From the IMG/VR virus record IMGVR_UViG_2531839473_000009: DNA of 10,411 nucleotides; one strand, 5' to 3'. Under the pieces are notes generated by a model. The model did no database searches, was not told the DNA's origin, and saw only the letters and a list, made by a program, of their open reading frames with translations. This stretch comes from a virus. Taxonomy: Duplodnaviria > Heunggongvirae > Uroviricota > Caudoviricetes. Positions 1,964-10,411 of the stretch are shown here, piece by piece. The position numbers and the translations under genes were made by a program. The first letter of the stretch is position 1; each line of letters starts with the position of its first letter.

Positions 1964-2111
1964 TGGTGTGAGGCGTAACGCGATGAACATAACAAAAAGC
2001 GCCCCGTTGCCGGAGCGCCCTTGCGAACAATTAACCTGCTGCGAAAAAAATGGATCAGTGCAGTGGAATTATATCAACCGTGTGACGAAGCGCCACAATT
2101 GCCGGATAACA

Positions 2112-2142
2112 GGCAAAACAAAGGCCACCCGCTACGGTGGCC
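2112..2142 (-). terminator. Possible terminator for the leftward small regulator gene
   Basis: Hairpin GGCCACC-CGCTAC-GGTGGCC (2123-2142). On the - strand it is followed by the T-rich run TTTGTTTTG. Lies between the convergent alpA and minus-strand gene. Confidence 0.35.
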
Positions 2143-2245
2143 CCTCGACACAAGCTACACGTTATCCCCAACGCATGAGCATAGCCAACAATGCCACATT
2201 TGCGGCTGGTGGGCAAAGCGTAACCGGAAAAAAATTCCGGTGGAG

Positions 2246-2425
2246 CTACTCCTGCTCTTTGGCCTTGCGGCGCTGGCGGCGTTTGATCTCGCCGCGCATG
2301 GCTGCACTTATAAACTGCCCTGTACTTTCGCCTTCTTCTTTCACGTTTTCCATGCCTTCAATAATTTCATGGGCAATACGTGCAGTTACAGATTGTGATT
2401 TTGCATTCTTTGGACCTGTTGCCAT
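2246..2425 (-). CDS. Small DNA-binding protein (59 aa), candidate ribbon-helix-helix repressor
   Basis: Start chosen at the internal ATG (MATGPKNAKSQSVTARIAHEIIEGMENVKEEGESTGQFISAAMRGEIKRRQRRKAKEQE) because a consensus SD (AAGGAG) lies 6 nt upstream; the longer track ORF (to 2464) lacks one. Pattern of a short beta-strand (SQSVTARI), two helices and a basic tail resembles Arc/CopG/MetJ-type proteins. Transcribed divergently from an operator-rich promoter region. Confidence 0.6.
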   Translation of the reverse strand: MATGPKNAKSQSVTARIAHEIIEGMENVKEEGESTGQFISAAMRGEIKRRQRRKAKEQE

Positions 2426-2445
2426 GTCTAACTCCTTATGTTTTT

Positions 2446-2527
2446 GGTGTAAGACAATATACACGAAAAAAAATTATTTTGAAGGGTTGACGTGTAAGAC
2501 ACTATTATTTTATATTGTGTCTTACAC
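2446..2527. promoter_or_regulatory. Divergent promoter pair with three copies of a GTGTAAGACA(C) operator motif
   Basis: Rightward promoter: TTGACG (2487-2492), 18-bp spacer, TATATT (2511-2516). Leftward promoter on the - strand: TTCAAA, 16-bp spacer, TATATT (+ coordinates 2456-2483). Operator copies: GTGTAAGACA 2447-2456, GTGTAAGACAC 2492-2502 and its perfect inverse GTGTCTTACAC 2517-2527. The copies overlap the -35 and transcription-start regions of both promoters. Confidence 0.6.
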
Positions 2528-2624
2528 CTTGTTGATACAAGGTGCAGAAACGACGAAACCCGGCAGTGCGCTAACACTAACCGGGCTTCTAACCACCAAC
2601 GATAACGAGAGTATCGAGGTAGCT

Positions 2625-3239
2625 ATGTTAAATCATACCATACACCCGCAAGGGCGGGACTCGCACAACCTGAATAAATATATCTGGCGTTTTATCGCCC
2701 TGAGCACAGCACAACCGCGCGTGATTACCATTGAGGCCACCAGCGAACAGGAAGCACGCCAGAAAAACCAGTTGATCGCCATTGCCAGCCAGGGCTATGA
2801 TTTATCCGCACCAGCAAAATCTGGTGCCGGGATTGGCGTCCTGGTATTTAACGAAGCGCACAACACGCGCCCTGCGTGTTTTTTTGTGCCGGATAGTCAC
2901 ACCTTATCAATGGTGGGCTGTATGGGGGCGGAGCAATCCGCGCCGGGTTCTTCGTTAACCGGTTACGCCAACCCTGTACAGTCCACCGCCAGCGAAATTG
3001 GCGTTTCCTGCGGTGGGTTTATTAAACCTAACGAAGAGGCTGCCAACATGGCTACTATCCCTGCCCTCGTACATTCTCAAACTGCCTTTATCTGGCGCTT
3101 TATCATCTTTGGCGCGTCAGAATCCCAAATCATCCACGTAACCGCCTGGACGGAACGCGAAGCGCGTAGTCGTTGCCCGTCCGGTTGTGTTGCTGTATTC
3201 GCCGCCCGTATTCGTCAGGAGGTGCGCCATGTGCAATAA
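2625..3239 (+). CDS. Icd-like (host cell division inhibitor-like) protein, long form with two tandem Icd-like modules (205 aa)
   Basis: First ATG downstream of the rightward promoter, in the only long open frame. N-terminal module MLNHTIHPQGRDSHNLNKYIWRFIALSTAQPRVITIEATSEQEAR carries the HPQGR...IWRF...SE-EAR pattern I associate with Icd-like small proteins of P4-like islands. No stop codon separates it from the second module. The 1968..2624 part of the track ORF is rejected. Confidence 0.35.
   Translation: MLNHTIHPQGRDSHNLNKYIWRFIALSTAQPRVITIEATSEQEARQKNQLIAIASQGYDLSAPAKSGAGIGVLVFNEAHNTRPACFFVPDSHTLSMVGCMGAEQSAPGSSLTGYANPVQSTASEIGVSCGGFIKPNEEAANMATIPALVHSQTAFIWRFIIFGASESQIIHVTAWTEREARSRCPSGCVAVFAARIRQEVRHVQ
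3048..3239 (+). CDS. Icd-like small protein (63 aa), internal in-frame start of the same frame
   Basis: ATG at 3048 preceded by GAAGAGG 8 nt upstream. Product MATIPALVHSQTAFIWRFIIFGASESQIIHVTAWTEREARSRCPSGCVAVFAARIRQEVRHVQ is the more canonical Icd-like module (FIWRF ... EREAR ... FAxR) and has the size typical of that family. Its stop overlaps the next gene start. Confidence 0.45.
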   Translation: MATIPALVHSQTAFIWRFIIFGASESQIIHVTAWTEREARSRCPSGCVAVFAARIRQEVRHVQ

Positions 3240-3684: not shown

Positions 3685-3984
3685 ATGAAACAGAAAAATT
3701 CTGGCTTTACTGCCAGTGGCCTCGCTCGGCCTGAAATCCGCCCCGGCGATATTTTCCGGGATAACTACGGCGGCACGGTAACGATTAAAAGCGTGGCGGG
3801 ACGGTGCGTAACTTACCGCCGTGAAGGTTACGAATATGATTGCGTGATGCCTGTTTATCAGTTCCGGCGTGATTTTTCTCTGGTACAGACCGCGCCGCAT
3901 AACGTGCCCACCAGCAACGCCAGGGCACGGGCAAACATCCAGAAGCTGAAAACCATGATTAACGGATTCAGGGGTAAAAAATGA
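3685..3984 (+). CDS. Hypothetical protein (99 aa) immediately upstream of and coupled to the primase gene
   Basis: ATG at 3685 with GGAGA 9 nt upstream. Its stop overlaps the primase start (ATGA, 3981-3984). Occupies the position held by small helper-interaction genes (epsilon-like) in P4-type left operons, but no sequence similarity can be asserted. Confidence 0.6.
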   Translation: MKQKNSGFTASGLARPEIRPGDIFRDNYGGTVTIKSVAGRCVTYRREGYEYDCVMPVYQFRRDFSLVQTAPHNVPTSNARARANIQKLKTMINGFRGKK

Positions 3985-5735
3985 AACTGGCACCGAACGT
4001 AAAACAGCAGTCACGCGGCATAAAACACAAAGAAACAGAAGTCATTATTTTTGCGGGTAGTGATGCCTGGTCACACGCAAAACAATGGCAGGAACATGAC
4101 GCGCGTCTGGCCGGAGATAATGAGCCTCCTGTGTGGCTTGGGGAGCAGCAGTTATCAGAACTGGATAAGCTGCAAATTGTGCCGGAAGGCAGAAAATCCG
4201 TGCGCATATTCAGGGCCGGATATCTTGCGCCAGTAATGATAAAGGCGATTGGCCAGAAGCTGGCGGCGGCAGGCGTACAGGATGCAAATTTTTATCCTGA
4301 GGGTATGCACGGCCAAGAGGTGCAGAACTGGCGCGAATATCTGGCCCGTGAGCGACAGAATCTTTCTGATGGTCTGGTCATTGAGCTTCCGGTAAAGCAA
4401 AAGGCGCAACTTTCGCAGATGGCGGACAGTGAGCGCGCGCAGCTGCTTGCCGATCGCTTTGATGGCGTTTGCGTACATCCTGAAAGTGAAATCGTTTACG
4501 TATGGCGCGGCGGGGTATGGTGTCCGGTCAGCACAATGGAACTTAGCCGCGAAATGGTGGCGATCTATTCAGAGCACAGGGCCACTTTCAGCAAGCGCGT
4601 AATCAATAACGCCGTGGAAGCGTTAAAAGTTATTGCCGAACCAATGGGCGAGCCGTCCGGCGATTTGCTGCCGTTCGCCAATGGTGCGCTTGACCTGAAA
4701 ACGGGGGAATTTTCCCCGCACACGCCGGAGAACTGGATCACCACGCACAACGGTATTGAGTACACGCCACCAGCACCAGGGGAGAATATCCGCGACAACG
4801 CGCCAAACTTTCATAAATGGCTTGAGCACGTAGCCGGAAAAGACCCGCGCAAGATGATGCGTATATGTGCCGCGCTGTACATGATTATGGCGAACCGGTA
4901 CGACTGGCAGATGTTTATTGAGGCCACCGGAGACGGCGGGAGCGGTAAAAGTACATTCACGCACATAGCCAGCCTTCTGGCAGGGAAACAGAACACGGTG
5001 AGCGCGGAGATGACATCGCTTGATGATGCTGGTGGACGTGCGCAGGTTGTCGGGAGTCGTCTTATCGTCCTGGCTGACCAGCCGAAATATACAGGCGAAG
5101 GAACGGGCATCAAGAAAATCACGGGCGGCGACCCCGTGGAAATTAACCCGAAATATGAAAAGCGTTTTACGGCGGTAATCAGGGCGGTGGTGCTGGCTAC
5201 CAACAATAACCCGATGATATTCACCGAACGGGCCGGAGGTGTGTCACGTCGTCGCATAATTTTCCGTTTCGACAATATCGTCAGTGAGGCCGAAAAAGAC
5301 AGGGAGCTACCGGAAAAGATTGCGGCTGAAATCCCTGTCATTATCCGCCGATTGCTGGCGAACTTTACCGACCCTGAGAAGGCACGGGCTTTACTACTGG
5401 AACAGCGTGACGGTGATGAAGCACTGGCAATAAAGCAACAGACGGATCCGGTTATTGAGTTTTGCCAGTTCCTGAATTTTCTGGAGGAAGCGCGCGGCCT
5501 GATGATGGGTGGCGGTGGTGATTCAGTGAAGTACACGACCAGGAACAGCCTTTATCGCGTCTATCTGGCGTTTATGGCGTACGCAGGCAGGAGCAAACCG
5601 CTAAACGTAAATGACTTTGGCAAGGCTATGAAGCCAGCCGCGAAAGTTTACGGACATAAATATATTACGCGGAAAGTTAAGGGAGTAACGCAGACTAACG
5701 CAATAACAACAGACGAGTGCGACGCGTTTTTATAA
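3981..5735 (+). CDS. Replication initiator: primase / SF3-type helicase (P4 alpha-like / D5 family, 584 aa)
   Basis: Walker A motif ATGDGGSGKST (nt about 4922-4954) and a Walker B-like RLIVLAD a short distance downstream. Large size, position after alpA and directly upstream of an iteron cluster match the pri-rep genes of PICI/P4-like satellites. Confidence 0.88.
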   Translation: MKLAPNVKQQSRGIKHKETEVIIFAGSDAWSHAKQWQEHDARLAGDNEPPVWLGEQQLSELDKLQIVPEGRKSVRIFRAGYLAPVMIKAIGQKLAAAGVQDANFYPEGMHGQEVQNWREYLARERQNLSDGLVIELPVKQKAQLSQMADSERAQLLADRFDGVCVHPESEIVYVWRGGVWCPVSTMELSREMVAIYSEHRATFSKRVINNAVEALKVIAEPMGEPSGDLLPFANGALDLKTGEFSPHTPENWITTHNGIEYTPPAPGENIRDNAPNFHKWLEHVAGKDPRKMMRICAALYMIMANRYDWQMFIEATGDGGSGKSTFTHIASLLAGKQNTVSAEMTSLDDAGGRAQVVGSRLIVLADQPKYTGEGTGIKKITGGDPVEINPKYEKRFTAVIRAVVLATNNNPMIFTERAGGVSRRRIIFRFDNIVSEAEKDRELPEKIAAEIPVIIRRLLANFTDPEKARALLLEQRDGDEALAIKQQTDPVIEFCQFLNFLEEARGLMMGGGGDSVKYTTRNSLYRVYLAFMAYAGRSKPLNVNDFGKAMKPAAKVYGHKYITRKVKGVTQTNAITTDECDAFL

Positions 5736-6023: not shown

Positions 6024-6302
6024 ATGCACACTTCAGGGAAATTTAATAAATCACTCAAAAAACGCAGAGACAGAACAGAACCGAAATATCGCGCGTTAGA
6101 CATGACAGAGCACGCTTTAAAGGTGGCAATCAGAACGATAGACCGCCACGCGGGGGAAGGATACGCGAAAGCACATCCCGACCTGATAAGCGCATTCATG
6201 ACCACGACGGCGGCAAATTTTGCCACGCTGACAGAGCGGGAGATTGCCGAAGCGGAACAGGTAACAACAATCAACGTTAAAACCGGAGAGGTGGAATCAT
6301 GA
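6024..6302 (+). CDS. Hypothetical protein (92 aa) upstream of and coupled to ssb
   Basis: ATG at 6024 with G-rich SD (GAGGGGG) 11 nt upstream. Stop overlaps the ssb start (ATGA). No family recognised. Confidence 0.5.
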   Translation: MHTSGKFNKSLKKRRDRTEPKYRALDMTEHALKVAIRTIDRHAGEGYAKAHPDLISAFMTTTAANFATLTEREIAEAEQVTTINVKTGEVES

Positions 6303-6721
6303 CAGCACAGATAGCCGCTTACGGGCGGCTGGTGGACGACCCGCAGGTAAAACAGACCAGCAAGGGCACACCGATGACGCTGGCGCGTATGGCGGTCCCC
6401 CTTCCGTGCAGCCAGGCAGATGACGGAACGGCGACGATGTGGTTATCCGTCCTGGCATTTGGCAGACAGGCCGAAGCACTGGAAAGGCACCGCAAGGGTG
6501 AACTCCTGAGCGTGGCGGGTAACATGCAGATCAGCCAGTGGACTGGGCAGAACGGAGAAACGCGGCAGGGCTGGCAGGTTATCGCAGACAGTGTAATCAG
6601 TGCGCGAACGGCGCGACTGGGCGGCAAAAAAGGTCAACAGGGCCAGGCTACTGACGCGCTGAACAGGGCAAAACAACAGGCGGGGAATGATGATCCGTAC
6701 GGGGATAACATACCGTTTTAA
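6299..6721 (+). CDS. ssb: Single-stranded DNA-binding protein (SSB-like, 140 aa)
   Basis: OB-fold region aligns by eye with E. coli SSB (GRLVDDPQVK versus GNLGQDPEVR; WLSVLAFGRQAEALERHRKGELLSVAGNMQISQWTGQNGETRQGW versus [43 protein letters not shown]). Gly/Gln-rich linker and acidic C-terminal tail ending DDPYGDNIPF (canonical SSB tip is DDDIPF). Confidence 0.8.
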   Translation: MTAQIAAYGRLVDDPQVKQTSKGTPMTLARMAVPLPCSQADDGTATMWLSVLAFGRQAEALERHRKGELLSVAGNMQISQWTGQNGETRQGWQVIADSVISARTARLGGKKGQQGQATDALNRAKQQAGNDDPYGDNIPF

Positions 6722-6736
6722 GCGACGAGTGACAGA

Positions 6737-6760
6737 AGCCGGAGCAATCCGGCTTTTTTA
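6737..6760 (+). terminator. Rho-independent terminator after ssb
   Basis: Perfect 7-bp stem AGCCGGA / TCCGGCT with GCAA loop, followed by T6. Part of a roughly 65-bp element repeated at 9171-9245. Confidence 0.7.
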
Positions 6761-6939
6761 CGGGTCCTCCTGGCGGGGTGGGCCTGAACACGGGGCGGGA
6801 GGCGCGGAAAAAAGCGCATTTTTGTGATTTTATCGTCATCATCATCATGAGCGTAATTTATTGTTTTTAATTGTTTTGATGCAAAAAAGATGATGGTTGT
6901 GGTTAATTTTTGTTCGACATCTTTGCAGGCAGATAAAAA

Positions 6940-6976
6940 AGCCCGATAAGGTCAGAGGTGGCTTATCGGGCTTTTG
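6940..6976. terminator. Second, bidirectional-looking intrinsic terminator
   Basis: Perfect 11-bp stem AGCCCGATAAG / CTTATCGGGCT with 11-nt loop, A6 run upstream and T4 downstream. Confidence 0.55.
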
Positions 6977-7052
6977 CATATGAGGCTTTTTGGTGCACTG
7001 ACACACATGATCGGGATCATCATTTCATAATTTGCAACACAACTCAACATCA

Positions 7053-7080
7053 TTGCATAAAATGCAATCATGATTATAAT
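7053..7080 (+). promoter_or_regulatory. Sigma70-type promoter upstream of the capsid module
   Basis: TTGCAT (7053-7058), 16-bp spacer, consensus TATAAT (7075-7080). The -35 element lies inside the palindrome TTGCAT-AAA-ATGCAA (7053-7067); further TTGCA half-sites are upstream (about 7031-7037). Confidence 0.45.
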
Positions 7081-7113
7081 CAGAACTGGATGAACATCCA
7101 GTTCTGATTTTTT
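7081..7113 (+). promoter_or_regulatory. Perfect 12-bp-arm hairpin plus T-tract directly downstream of the promoter -10 (candidate leader terminator/attenuator or operator)
   Basis: CAGAACTGGATG-AA-CATCCAGTTCTG (7081-7106) followed by A then T6 (7108-7113), about 25 nt upstream of the first capsid-module start codon. Confidence 0.45.
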
Positions 7114-7136
7114 AAGTCAAAGAGGAATTTCTTACT

Positions 7137-7343
7137 ATGGCTGAAGAGAAAAAAGGCGGTGTTTCGGTGTACATAAGCCCCGAAATCGTGGAGGTGCTCA
7201 AGCAGCGCCACAAAAAAAACTATGAGGCTGGCGTGGCGGCTGGACTGGATCCGCTGATGACGCCGGAGCCGTCGATAGGTTCACTTGTACGCTCTTATTT
7301 ACTTGCGGCGCTTGGGATGCATAAAAATTATGGGGGTGAATAA
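7137..7343 (+). CDS. Hypothetical protein (68 aa), first gene of the capsid module
   Basis: ATG at 7137 with AGAGGA upstream. Stop TAA overlaps the capsid gene ATG (TAATG at 7341-7345). No family recognised. Confidence 0.5.
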   Translation: MAEEKKGGVSVYISPEIVEVLKQRHKKNYEAGVAAGLDPLMTPEPSIGSLVRSYLLAALGMHKNYGGE

Positions 7344-8398
7344 TGGCAGGCAAAGCAACGGCACTTAACACTAACCAGCTTTTCATGTACCTGAATCGCG
7401 GGGATATTGCGGAATTTAAATTCAGTCCGCTGTTTACCACGCTGTTTTTCCCGAACGTGGCGACATTCAACACCCAAAACATCATGCTGGACACCCTGGA
7501 CATTGAAGAGGTTACGATGTCGGCGTTTTGTTCGCCTATGGTGGGTAGTCAGGTCCAGCGCGATAAAGGGTACGAAACCAGCACGATTAAACCTGGATAC
7601 ATGAAGCCGAAGCACGAAATCGATCCAACGAAAACCATCATACGTATGGCTGGAGAAGATCCGGCACAGCTTAATGACCCAACCTATCGCCGTATGCGCC
7701 TGATTACTGGCAACATGCGCCGCCAGATAAACGCGATTAAAGCGCGCGTGGAATGGCTGGCGGTGAATGCGATAACGACCGGAAAAAACATCATTGAGGG
7801 CGAAGGCATAGAACGCTATGAAATCGACTGGAAGATACCGGAAAAAAACATCATAGAGCAGGCCAAAGGCCGTAAATGGTCCGAGCAGGACAAAGAAACC
7901 CACGATCCAATCTATGATATCGAGCTTTATGCGGATCAAGCATGTTGCCCCGCCAACGTCATGATCATGGGCGCTGAGGTATGGCGAACGTTACGCAGCT
8001 TTAAAAAATTCCGCGAACTGTACGATCTTTCCCGTGGTTCAGAGTCCTCCGCAGAGCTGGCCTGTAAAAACCTGGGCGAAGTGGTGAGCTTTAAAGGATA
8101 TCTGGGCGATATTGCCCTTATCGTCTATTCCGGCAAATACACTGACAGCGACGGCACCGAAAAATATTTCCTTGAGCCTGATTTGCTGGTCCTGGGCAAC
8201 ACCAACAATAAAGGGCTGGTGGCCTATGGTGCGATTATGGATCAGGAAGCGGTCAGAACGGGCGCAACGCAAAACATGTTTTACCCGAAAAACTGGATTG
8301 AGGACGGCGATCCGGCGATTGAGTACGTGCAGACGCACAGCGCACCGCAGCCGGTTCCGGCAGATATTCGCAAATTTGTTACCGTCAAAATTGGTTAA
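7343..8398 (+). CDS. Major capsid protein, lambda gpE family (351 aa)
   Basis: Collinear similarity to recalled lambda E along the whole length: FKFSPLFTTLFF versus FKFDPLFLRLFF; PGYMKPKHEIDP versus PGYVKPKHEVNP; DPTYRRMRLI versus DPAYRRRRII; IVYSGKY...LVLGNTNNKGLVAYGAI versus VVYSGQY...MVLGNTQARGLRTYGCI; YPKNWIEDGDPAIEY versus YPKNWVTTGDPAREF; C-terminus FVTVKIG versus FVSVQLA. SD GGGGTG 6 nt upstream. Confidence 0.9.
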   Translation: MAGKATALNTNQLFMYLNRGDIAEFKFSPLFTTLFFPNVATFNTQNIMLDTLDIEEVTMSAFCSPMVGSQVQRDKGYETSTIKPGYMKPKHEIDPTKTIIRMAGEDPAQLNDPTYRRMRLITGNMRRQINAIKARVEWLAVNAITTGKNIIEGEGIERYEIDWKIPEKNIIEQAKGRKWSEQDKETHDPIYDIELYADQACCPANVMIMGAEVWRTLRSFKKFRELYDLSRGSESSAELACKNLGEVVSFKGYLGDIALIVYSGKYTDSDGTEKYFLEPDLLVLGNTNNKGLVAYGAIMDQEAVRTGATQNMFYPKNWIEDGDPAIEYVQTHSAPQPVPADIRKFVTVKIG

Positions 8399-8409
8399 CG
8401 GGGGATTCT

Positions 8410-8745
8410 ATGGACACTCCATACATTGAGTTATTTGCAGGCAGTCAGCAGGTTGCCACGACGCTGGTACATTTTGCCGCTGATGCTGGCGTTATTCAGG
8501 AATTTACCCCGCTGATGCTGGCGGACAATGGCGAATTTAAGCCGTGGGATGGTCAGGAATCTGGCAAGGCTGTTTATCTGACGGCGTATCCCGTGGACAC
8601 GTCAACGCAGAAATCAGCACAGTGTTACAAGACGGGGATATTCAATATTGCCGCCGTTAACTGGCCTGAGAGCGTCGACACCGACGCGAAAAAATGTGCC
8701 GCCTTTGCGGGTTCTGGTGTATCTGTTCAGCCGCTGGCGCGATAA
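8410..8745 (+). CDS. Head decoration protein, lambda gpD family (111 aa)
   Basis: TPLMLADNGEFKPWDG versus lambda D TPLMLDTSSRKLVAWDG; YKTGIFNIAAVNWPESVDTDAKKCAAFAGSGVSV versus [34 protein letters not shown]. Same length class as gpD; SD GGGGGA upstream. Lies downstream of the E-like gene, the opposite order to lambda. Confidence 0.85.
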   Translation: MDTPYIELFAGSQQVATTLVHFAADAGVIQEFTPLMLADNGEFKPWDGQESGKAVYLTAYPVDTSTQKSAQCYKTGIFNIAAVNWPESVDTDAKKCAAFAGSGVSVQPLAR

Positions 8746-8758
8746 GCAGGGGGGAACG

Positions 8759-9172
8759 ATGGCAACGAATGAAAGTATCATGGCGCTACCGCTGGCGAGT
8801 AAATTTAAAGCTGAAGCGCGGGCAATGGCTGACAGATGTCTATCAACCTACGAAGCTATATATCAACTTAACAAACTGGAAGAACAGGACAAGCCGCGCG
8901 CTGATGCGATTATGTCGCTTCATGAATCTGACGACTATCAGCCGCTGTTACGTGCAATGGCAAACGTGCCTTGTATTGATGTTGATACGGCTAAAAACAT
9001 CCTGAACATGACCATAGAACAGGAACGCCAGAAGGTTGCACCAGAGCTTACCGCAGCCTTTGAAAACTTTATGGACATGCACAGCCCACAAGCCGTATCA
9101 GCTGGCATGGCATACGATGGCAGAAACCCGGGCGATGACGGCGACATTGATCGCATACTGAAAACCATCTGA
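8759..9172 (+). CDS. Hypothetical protein (137 aa), last gene of the capsid module
   Basis: ATG at 8759 with G-rich SD (AGGGGGG) 6-8 nt upstream; the longer track ORF start (8648) overlaps the decoration gene and lacks an SD. Acidic C-terminus. Followed by an intrinsic terminator. No family recognised. Confidence 0.55.
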   Translation: MATNESIMALPLASKFKAEARAMADRCLSTYEAIYQLNKLEEQDKPRADAIMSLHESDDYQPLLRAMANVPCIDVDTAKNILNMTIEQERQKVAPELTAAFENFMDMHSPQAVSAGMAYDGRNPGDDGDIDRILKTI

Positions 9173-9200: not shown

Positions 9201-9333
9201 GCGGGTCCTTTCCGGCATATGGACCTGTTACGGGGCGGCGACCTCGCGCGTTTTCACTATTTATGACGTTTTTCCGAGAAGGTGCCACCACCACCACTTG
9301 ATTAATATTTAACCATGCAGTTGAGGTAACATT

Positions 9334-9768
9334 ATGATTGATAAAGCTTGTTTTGTAAGCCAGCAGGAAATAGCTGAACATTTCCAGGTAAACAGAACCA
9401 CTATTCGCGCATGGACCAAACAGGGGATGCCCTATCTTAATGCGGATCGCGGAAAGTCTGGCGGTTATCACATCGGGCATACATTGCTTTGGTCTTCAGG
9501 TAAAAGCCATTTTGAGACCATCGGATATCACGTAGAAACCAGTGCGCTGGAAAAAATTATGGTTGCCAGGCTGCTTTCATCTGAGCGTGACGAGTACTCC
9601 AGTGAAGAAACAGAACATCGATTTGATGAAGGTTTGCAGATTTACGGCTATGCACCGGAAGATGTGAGCAAGGCACGAAATAAAATGGCTGGCTTTCTGG
9701 CTGGGTGGCGTCATGCAGTAAGCGTTCGCCGTGCCAGCATGGAGCAATCAGCCGATACAGAACAGTAA
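9334..9768 (+). CDS. Nu1-like small terminase subunit / winged-HTH DNA-binding protein (144 aa)
   Basis: N-terminus VSQQEIAEHFQVNRTTIRAWTKQGMPYLNADRGKSGG resembles lambda Nu1 KKQLADIFGASIRTIQNWQEQGMPVLRGGGKGNE (the TI..W...GMP.L....GK motif of its winged helix). About 35 aa shorter than Nu1 with an unrelated C-terminal half. SD GAGGT 5 nt upstream. A MerR-like regulator cannot be excluded. Confidence 0.55.
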   Translation: MIDKACFVSQQEIAEHFQVNRTTIRAWTKQGMPYLNADRGKSGGYHIGHTLLWSSGKSHFETIGYHVETSALEKIMVARLLSSERDEYSSEETEHRFDEGLQIYGYAPEDVSKARNKMAGFLAGWRHAVSVRRASMEQSADTEQ

Positions 9769-9926: not shown

Positions 9927-10411
9927 TGGATTTGCCCCTATATTTCCAGACATCTGTTATCACTTAACCCATTACAAGCCCGCTGCCGCAGATATTCCCG
10001 TGGCGAGCGATAACCCAGCGCACTATGCGGATGCCATTCGTTATAATGCTCGAACGCCTCTGCAAGGTTCTTTGCTGCCGTTAACCCGTCTGGTTTGGGC
10101 ATGATACTGATGTAGTCACGCTTTATCGTTTTCACGAAGCTCTCTGCTATTCCGTTACTCTCCGGACTCCGCACCGCCGTGTTCTTCGGTTCAAGTCCCA
10201 ACATCCGGGCGAACTGGCGTGTTTCATTAGCCCGGTAGCATGAACCATTATCCGTCAGCCACTCCACTGGAGACGACGGAAGATCGTTGCCGAAGCGGCG
10301 TTCCACCGCTCCCAGCATGACGTCCTGTACTGTTTCACTGTTGAAGCCGCCAGTAGTCACCGCCCAGTGCAGTGCCTCACGATCACAGCAGTCCAGCGCG
10401 AACGTGACACG
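9927..10411 (-). mobile_element. IS2 (IS3 family), right end and 3' part, truncated by the window edge
   Basis: Terminal sequence TGGATTTGCCCCTATATTTCCAGACATCTGTTATCACTTAACC matches the remembered IS2 end adjacent to the orfB stop, including the conserved TTTCCAGACA...TATCACTTAA inverted-repeat core. Element boundary placed at about 9927. Target-site duplication cannot be checked because the other end is outside the window. Confidence 0.8.
9938..10411 (-). CDS. insD: IS2 transposase OrfB (InsD), C-terminal part; 5' end outside the window
   Basis: The reverse frame is open to the window edge (..[40 protein letters not shown]...[19 protein letters not shown]...[24 protein letters not shown]). 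It matches the IS2 InsD C-terminus from memory and has the DDE-domain tail typical of IS3-family OrfB. Confidence 0.9.

Follow-up and report, generated by a model that had tools for sequence, protein, structure and literature searches.

A probable LexA operator at the predicted capsid operon promoter of an EcCICFT073-type phage-inducible chromosomal island

The closest described counterpart of the locus analyzed here is the LexA-controlled operon I of the pathogenicity islands of Staphylococcus aureus (SaPIs) (Ubeda et al. 2007, as cited in PMC6092414). As far as the account given there goes, a satellite's capsid morphogenesis and packaging operon, located downstream of the replication module, is placed under the host SOS repressor. 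We describe the same operon position, and predict the same kind of repressor, in a Gram-negative phage-inducible chromosomal island (PICI); in both settings, an operon under the host SOS repressor would be expressed in coincidence with the SOS induction of helper prophages. The two systems differ in host lineage, in their operators (a Gram-positive Cheo box versus CTG-N10-CAG here), and in their genes (terS, cpm, and pti versus capsid genes of the lambda E and D types here). On this comparison, we regard the likeness as convergent or functional, not homologous, LexA control being a prediction in the PICI.

Host LexA also directly times genes of other mobile elements, namely, tum of coliphage 186, PrstA of CTXphi, and P1 of GIL01 (PMC4551915), although the genes controlled there are regulators of lysogeny and induction, whereas in the PICI they are predicted to be structural. 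Induction of Gram-negative PICIs proceeds through helper-dependent AlpA and is independent of SOS (PMC6092414). A Gram-negative PICI with its late operon under LexA is not mentioned in PMC6092414, PMC6739421, PMC11773190, PMC10460865, the preprint on capsid-forming PICIs (cf-PICIs), or the results of our full-text searches; the literature searched likewise contains no description of how capsid and decoration genes are controlled in these islands and no phenotype for c1499 or c1500.

The window, by which we mean the whole 10,411-nucleotide stretch of IMG/VR record IMGVR_UViG_2531839473_000009, is a Gram-negative PICI of the EcCICFT073 type. It encodes a tyrosine integrase (int, 1 to 1242), AlpA (1757 to 1963), a D5-type primase (the primase/rep gene, 3981 to 5735), a single-stranded DNA-binding protein (SSB, 6299 to 6721), and an Rpp-like HTH protein (9334 to 9768); its genes are unidirectional, an exact lambda cosN site (GGGCGGCGACCT, 9233 to 9244) closely precedes the rpp-like gene, and tail and lysis genes are absent. 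Alignment with annotated PICIs, including that of CFT073, reveals synteny and 85 to 99% identity, and the gene order is that of the annotated islands adjoining phoQ in O157:H7, UPEC, and CFT073. The operon of interest (plus strand, 7137 to 9172) comprises orf68 (a 68-amino-acid ORF homologous to c1498, 7137 to 7343), a lambda-E-type major capsid protein gene (7343 to 8398), a gpD-type decoration protein gene (8410 to 8745), and a gene for a scaffold-like protein (8759 to 9172). These assignments come from Pfam and PHROG matches and from a gene order that is the same in annotated genomes, and the CFT073 counterparts are c1498 to c1501. The 501 bases around the palindrome that precedes this operon are present in 598 of 5426 complete Escherichia coli genomes (~11%) at 80 to 99% identity, and in those genomes the neighbors are always annotated as a hypothetical protein followed by a major capsid protein.

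Several other features of the island deserve mention. A copy of cosN with one mismatch occurs at 5123 to 5134, inside the primase gene, and this site and the one at 9233 to 9244 are probably cos1 and cos2 of EcCICFT073. Direct repeats upstream of alpA (GTGGGTACCGTTTT and GTGGGTACTGTTTT, 1658 to 1692) probably serve AlpA in regulating its own gene. The window closes on its right, immediately behind the rpp-like gene, with a fragment of an IS3-family transposase gene on the minus strand (9938 to 10411); because related islands carry a further small ORF at this place before the flanking chromosome, truncation or interruption of the island is probable.

A first-pass annotation of the window, made from its letters alone, had pointed to a near-consensus promoter ahead of the capsid genes, with a perfect palindrome and a T tract directly behind it. 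The parts are indeed there in that order on the plus strand: a putative −35 hexamer TTGCAT (7053 to 7058), a 16-bp spacer, a consensus −10 hexamer TATAAT (7075 to 7080), T6 (7108 to 7113), a Shine-Dalgarno sequence GAGGA (7122 to 7126), and the orf68 start codon ATG (7137 to 7139). The description of the promoter as near consensus holds for the −10 hexamer, which is perfect, but not for the −35 hexamer, which matches TTGACA at only three of six positions, so that our consensus scan did not list the promoter. Among relatives, the TTGC of the −35 hexamer is conserved (the variants are TTGCAC, TTGCTC, and TTGCGA), and the −10 hexamer is TATAAT in 69 of 70 related copies and in Salmonella as well. 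Transcription is predicted to start at about 7087 (7086 to 7089). The palindrome is a perfect inverted repeat, as claimed, but its arms, put at 12 bp in the first-pass annotation, extend to 15 nt each in our inverted-repeat search: AATCAGAACTGGATG (7078 to 7092) and CATCCAGTTCTGATT (7095 to 7109) enclose a 2-nt loop, and the palindrome together with T6 spans 7078 to 7113. The 5' arm shares the last three bases (AAT) of the −10 hexamer.

The core of this palindrome is the 16-mer CTGGATGAACATCCAG (7086 to 7101), a dyad of the form CTG-N10-CAG with an A/T-rich center, which is the form that the LexA dimer recognizes (PMC2994835). We scored it as the 20-mer AACTGGATGAACATCCAGTT (7084 to 7103), which covers the predicted start, against a symmetrized weight matrix of 28 proven E. 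coli LexA boxes; all scores are approximate. The 20-mer reaches 22.5 bits, the best score in the window; on the same matrix, the recA box scores 21.7 bits and the known sites as a whole 7.4 to 26.2 bits, all leave-one-out values. Its heterology index on our own matrix is 4.8, compared with 4.5 for recA. None of 200 shuffled versions of the window reached 22.5 bits (the maximum was 16.4), and in 377 kb of unrelated DNA there was no match of at least 16 bits and one of at least 14 bits. The half-sites, in the arrangement CTGGAT...ATCCAG, resemble the ruvA and cho boxes.

The E. coli SOS operators, such as those of recA, sulA, ruvA, cho, and the colicin operons, share with this site the CTG-N10-CAG dyad, the A/T-rich center, and the overlap with a promoter or start: the box begins 4 nt after the −10 hexamer of the promoter that we predict. 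The approximate predicted affinity of the PICI box falls within the range of proven sites (PMC2994835), and orthologous loci conserve the box, as described below. The PICI box differs from these operators in residing on a mobile satellite, in its predicted control of structural capsid genes, and in being embedded in a longer palindrome that is followed by a T run. Colicin operons, moreover, have two overlapping boxes, whereas the capsid promoter of the PICI has a single one.

A palindrome core that matches known operators, is statistically rare and conserved, and is placed as described with respect to a predicted promoter makes it probable that the palindrome is a host LexA operator of a sigma-70 promoter for the capsid morphogenesis operon. 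We infer from these features that LexA binds the site, that TATAAT serves as the active −10 hexamer, and that the operon is derepressed after SOS induction. In an undamaged cell, a LexA dimer on 7086 to 7101, right after the −10 hexamer and over the start, would block RNA polymerase; upon DNA damage, activated RecA would bring about the self-cleavage of LexA and hence derepression of the capsid operon, and the same SOS signal would induce lambdoid helper prophages. The palindromic shape would then mostly reflect the twofold symmetry that a LexA site has, and it would be no evidence of an RNA device. The first-pass annotation had offered a binding site for a dimeric repressor as its alternative reading, and that alternative fits well with a core that is a high-scoring and conserved LexA box. 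For the same reason, the switch is most likely coupled to host SOS and not, as had been suggested, to the late program of the helper.

Conservation was assessed in loci retrieved by anchoring on the upstream promoter repeats and not on the box itself. The 63 IMG/VR loci found in this way and 7 E. coli loci provide 70 copies that fall into 15 haplotypes. All 70 have the box at the same place, with scores of 17.9 to 24.0 bits and with CTG and CAG invariant. A metagenome scan yielded 20 further copies, all with the box, and added no new diversity; the box is thus kept in all of the ~90 related copies from E. coli, IMG/VR, and metagenomes, and in Salmonella besides. More diverged elements were found through orf68 proteins of 55 to 68% identity. 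Those in E. coli (L124 to L126) have the box AACTGGATGTTCATACAGTT, at 23.6 bits, and those in Salmonella (L127 and L128), in which the first gene is only ~55% identical and the flanks and 5' untranslated region differ, have the box GACTGGATGAAAATCCAGTA, at 19.5 bits, and keep TATAAT and both upstream repeats. Species-level scans confirmed no locus when made with the capsid protein and gave only chance matches, in AT-rich genomes, when made with a 19-nt promoter pattern.

The variation among these copies bears on whether the palindrome is a DNA site or an RNA stem. Across the 70 copies, conservation of the palindrome is lowest in its outer arms. The pair 7083/7104 is a G.A mismatch in 45 of them, T-A in 22, and G-C in 3, including the window, so that the perfect palindrome is untypical of the family; the pair 7085/7102 is T.T in 9 copies, and the pair 7081/7106 is C.A in 5 of 70, where the stem is detached from the T run. 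The change of CATCCAG to CATACAG places a G.A mismatch in the middle of the stem, yet the LexA score goes up to 23.6, and with the change of TTATGATT to TTATAATT the stem is no longer joined to the T tract, yet the LexA score stays the same. Covariation of the paired positions amounts to 0.070 versus 0.067 in shuffled alignments, 184 of 500 of which were as high, and thus provides no signal; one stem pair has the alternatives G-C and T-A, though 45 of 70 copies have G.A there. In Salmonella, the long dyad has lost its symmetry through an indel, but the LexA core has not. Not everything outside the core is lost, however. A hairpin survives in all variants, with folding energies of −9.4 to −19.4 kcal/mol, and Salmonella keeps the outer arms (AATCA./.TGATT, 5 to 6 bp) around an asymmetric internal loop as well as the T run, with only three T's after the stem. 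Outer arms and a T tract that lie outside the 20-mer and are kept all the same are not explained by LexA binding and count against the LexA reading, as do the weak −35 hexamer of the predicted promoter and the recombinant L006 (described below), in which this promoter occurs without a LexA box.

As a hairpin, the palindrome is striking in the window. RNA of 7070 to 7136 (67 nt) folds at −23.3 kcal/mol (z = −4.73), a stability equaled by none of 200 shuffled sequences, and the palindrome is the longest stem among the terminator-like sites of the plus strand, called by the scan as a 14-pair stem with a T run. Such sites are not enriched as a class (17 in the window versus 13.1 ± 3.9 expected). 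The T run is found on the plus strand only. It is an unlikely reading, but one that retains appreciable weight, that the palindrome and T6 form an intrinsic terminator for transcripts arriving from upstream, either those of the AlpA early operon or a leak from perC through the hairpin T1. The capsid operon would then be insulated and dependent on its own promoter, and LexA binding might coexist with this function. The stable stem of 14 to 15 bp directly before T6 in the window, the persistence of a hairpin in every variant, and the retention of arms and T run in Salmonella despite the indel all favor it. Against it, many relatives have a stem that is weaker or detached from the T tract, as the mismatch and detachment counts above attest, covariation gives no signal, Salmonella has three T's only, and LexA accounts for all conserved positions within the 20-mer. 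A secondary role as terminator is possible, because the outer arms and T run persist even in Salmonella and LexA leaves them unexplained.

A terminator, moreover, is already present 100 nt upstream. The hairpin T1 (6941 to 6975, plus strand) has the stem GCCCGATAAG (6941 to 6950) and CTTATCGGGC (6962 to 6971), preceded by A6 (6935 to 6940) and followed by TTTT (6972 to 6975). Its stem does not differ between 8 E. coli loci, in which the loop varies, and it is kept even where it directly follows a perC terminator; T1 marks the end of the ssb/perC unit and shields the capsid promoter from it. With A6-7 before the stem and only T4 after it, T1 is better suited to terminate transcripts of the minus strand, where there is no known gene. 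The sequence GATTATAATC at 7072 to 7081 is its own reverse complement, so that a consensus TATAAT exists on the minus strand too; the −35 hexamer belonging to it falls within the LexA box. From these motifs one can conceive of a divergent RNA of ~130 nt that is under SOS control and stops at T1. We consider it improbable that the palindrome has a dual use, as DNA serving a bidirectional promoter as its LexA operator and as RNA terminating what leaks from the AlpA operon through T1. Were this so, the capsid operon would not follow helper-induced AlpA and would respond to host SOS alone, and the minus-strand RNA of ~130 nt might be a second SOS output.

The first-pass annotation had preferred another arrangement, in which transcripts from TATAAT would stop at the hairpin within ~40 nt and would require a Q-like antiterminator of the helper, after the manner of lambda pR'-tR'. 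The PICI region shares with pR'-tR' a promoter, a hairpin, and a T run in the right order ahead of late (head) genes; helpers of this PICI family are lambdoid, a prophage neighboring the island in CFT073 has the Q-family gene quuD, and cf-PICI relatives do have a leader of ~170 nt that ends in a hairpin and T7-8 before the capsid ATG. In the window, however, the geometry does not allow this reading. Because the 5' arm shares bases with the −10 hexamer and itself contains the predicted start, RNA of the adjacent promoter would not include the complete hairpin, unlike the leader RNA of pR'-tR'. RNA from the predicted start could form only a 5-bp stem (GGAUG/CAUCC, −3.9 kcal/mol), 8 nt before the U tract. 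This weak stem is seen in nearly all of the 15 haplotypes, and the haplotype with the mid-stem change folds weaker still. Unlike pR'-tR', the PICI region has no TANNNT-type (−10-like) pause element within 7087 to 7113 and no similarity to phage late regions: a blastn search of 6930 to 7140 against 50,697 phage records produced no match, a result on which we also rejected mimicry of a helper late promoter. Q-binding elements are specific to the Q protein concerned. In CFT073, finally, c1498 to c1501 are expressed despite a perfect palindrome, and their mRNA levels shift 2- to 5-fold although no prophage is induced. We find a Q-dependent switch at this position hardly credible, and the LexA reading cautions against annotating this hairpin and T run as a terminator or attenuator.

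A LexA-like appearance might also arise by mere resemblance, the palindrome being the operator of some other dimeric regulator, encoded by the PICI (orf68, AlpA, or PerC) or by a helper. The full dyad of 32 bp exceeds a LexA site in length, orf68 is a small protein without an assigned function, and the conserved repeats at 7018 to 7067 point to one or more further proteins that bind DNA here. We nevertheless judge this very improbable. By our own estimate from the information content of the matrix, a half-site would match this well by chance in about 1 of 2000 palindromes, and it is the LexA core, not the long dyad with its poorly conserved outer arms, that survives in Salmonella. The candidates within the island fare no better. 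The repeats GTGGGTAC of AlpA's own promoter (1658 to 1692) are absent from the capsid promoter, for which reason we rejected AlpA as its regulator, and perC is missing from the window, yet the palindrome is kept. The AF2 model of orf68 (pLDDT 73) has an extended segment and two helices, a small strand-helix-helix-like shape, but Foldseek found nothing in the PDB below E = 2.5 and no match to DNA-binding folds, nor was there a Pfam match, and orf68 is at most a candidate RHH-type autoregulator. The palindrome is also neither a cos site nor a replication origin, since both are located elsewhere, cosN at 9233 to 9244 and the origin, as reported, directly 3' of pri (PMC6092414).

The region upstream of the probable LexA operator has a conserved organization of its own. 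A 20-nt direct repeat occurs as CATCATTtCATAAtTTGCAA (7018 to 7037) and CATCATTGCATAAAATGCAA (7048 to 7067), 30 bp apart, and our repeat search returned three matches versus 0.05 expected. On the plus strand, site 1 (CATCATTTCATAATTTGCAA, of the form TTtCAT-N3-tTGCAA) is centered at about −60 from the predicted start, and site 2 overlaps the −35 hexamer. The TTGCA half-sites noted in the first-pass annotation are real and conserved; TTGCAT-AAA-ATGCAA (7053 to 7067), listed there among them and itself palindromic, belongs to the second copy of this direct repeat. Repeats of the type TTKCAT-N3-WTGCAA are conserved from E. coli to Salmonella, and the motif TTGCAT-N3-ATGCAA occurs nowhere else in the window. 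Site 1 is a candidate for a protein-binding site or a UP-like A/T element. Among the consensus sequences compared with the promoter, namely, those of Fur, CRP, FNR, IHF, the CytR octamers, and the Ogr/Delta TGT-N12-ACA motif, none stands out.

Published expression data from CFT073 allow a comparison, since EcCICFT073 has a perfect palindrome (the T-A variant) and a LexA 20-mer identical to that of the window. Upon a shift from 23 to 37°C, c1498, c1499, c1500, and c1501 rise by 2.24, 2.05, 1.45, and 1.17 log2 fold, respectively, while ssb upstream (0.24 log2) and c1503 downstream (0.33 log2) are unchanged (PMC12890032 supplement). That c1498 to c1501 rise independently of their neighbors supports a separate transcription unit that starts between perC/ssb and c1498. 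The SOS genes sulA, dinI, umuD, and dinB are unchanged in the same shift (PMC12890032 supplement); a 2- to 5-fold rise at 37°C with unchanged SOS genes means that LexA is not the sole control and that repression is not absolute. These data point to thermoregulation of the capsid operon in CFT073, at 37 versus 23°C, and the upstream TTGCA repeats, which are conserved and A/T-rich, possibly mediate this further control at 37°C. A conserved LexA box of high predicted affinity on the capsid promoter, in ~11% of complete E. coli genomes, suggests for its part a second, host-sensed input into a Gram-negative PICI besides helper-dependent AlpA, and such an input could help to account for the timing with which the enigmatic capsid genes of PICIs are expressed.

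The capsid promoter is not the only place in the window with a strong LexA-type box, which also favors the LexA reading. A second one (AACTGTACAAAAAACCAGTA, 1241 to 1260, 20.5 bits) extends across the stop codon of int and is followed by TATAAT (1290 to 1295), a Shine-Dalgarno sequence and a GTG-initiated ORF of 80 amino acids (1344 to 1586) that has no family match, and a terminator (1591 to 1616). Related boxes are present in the int-alpA region of ~25 other PICI loci; in many loci, related boxes sit 5.4 to 6.5 kb upstream of the late promoter.

Two further observations concern RNA elements in these islands. An Rfam scan by E value found nothing at 6700 to 7200; its sole matches in the window, at 2795 to 2993, are to isrK (80 bits) and to the C4 antisense RNA (75 bits), the latter with its a1/b1 target, and this segment is a P1/P4-type immunity RNA cassette within a listed ORF of 423 amino acids (1968 to 3239). 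The other concerns cf-PICIs. One E. coli element, L006, is a recombinant (2400 to 2690) in which T1 and the promoter module of a PICI are joined, just after the −10 hexamer, to the leader and packaging module of a cf-PICI, the only case of this type among the 5426 genomes; it thus has the same promoter but a cf-PICI leader, and no LexA box. The cf-PICI leader of ~170 nt is found in 353 E. coli genomes and ends in an 11-bp hairpin and T7-8 that abut the ATG of an HK97-type capsid gene, with the Shine-Dalgarno sequence inside the 3' arm (2808 to 2848 in L006 and 1626 to 1665 in a second locus, L123). With a leader that ends in this way, cf-PICIs may have the layout of promoter, leader, and terminator that the first-pass annotation had proposed for the window, which does not have it, and the leader hairpin of the cf-PICIs may be an attenuator or a translational switch.
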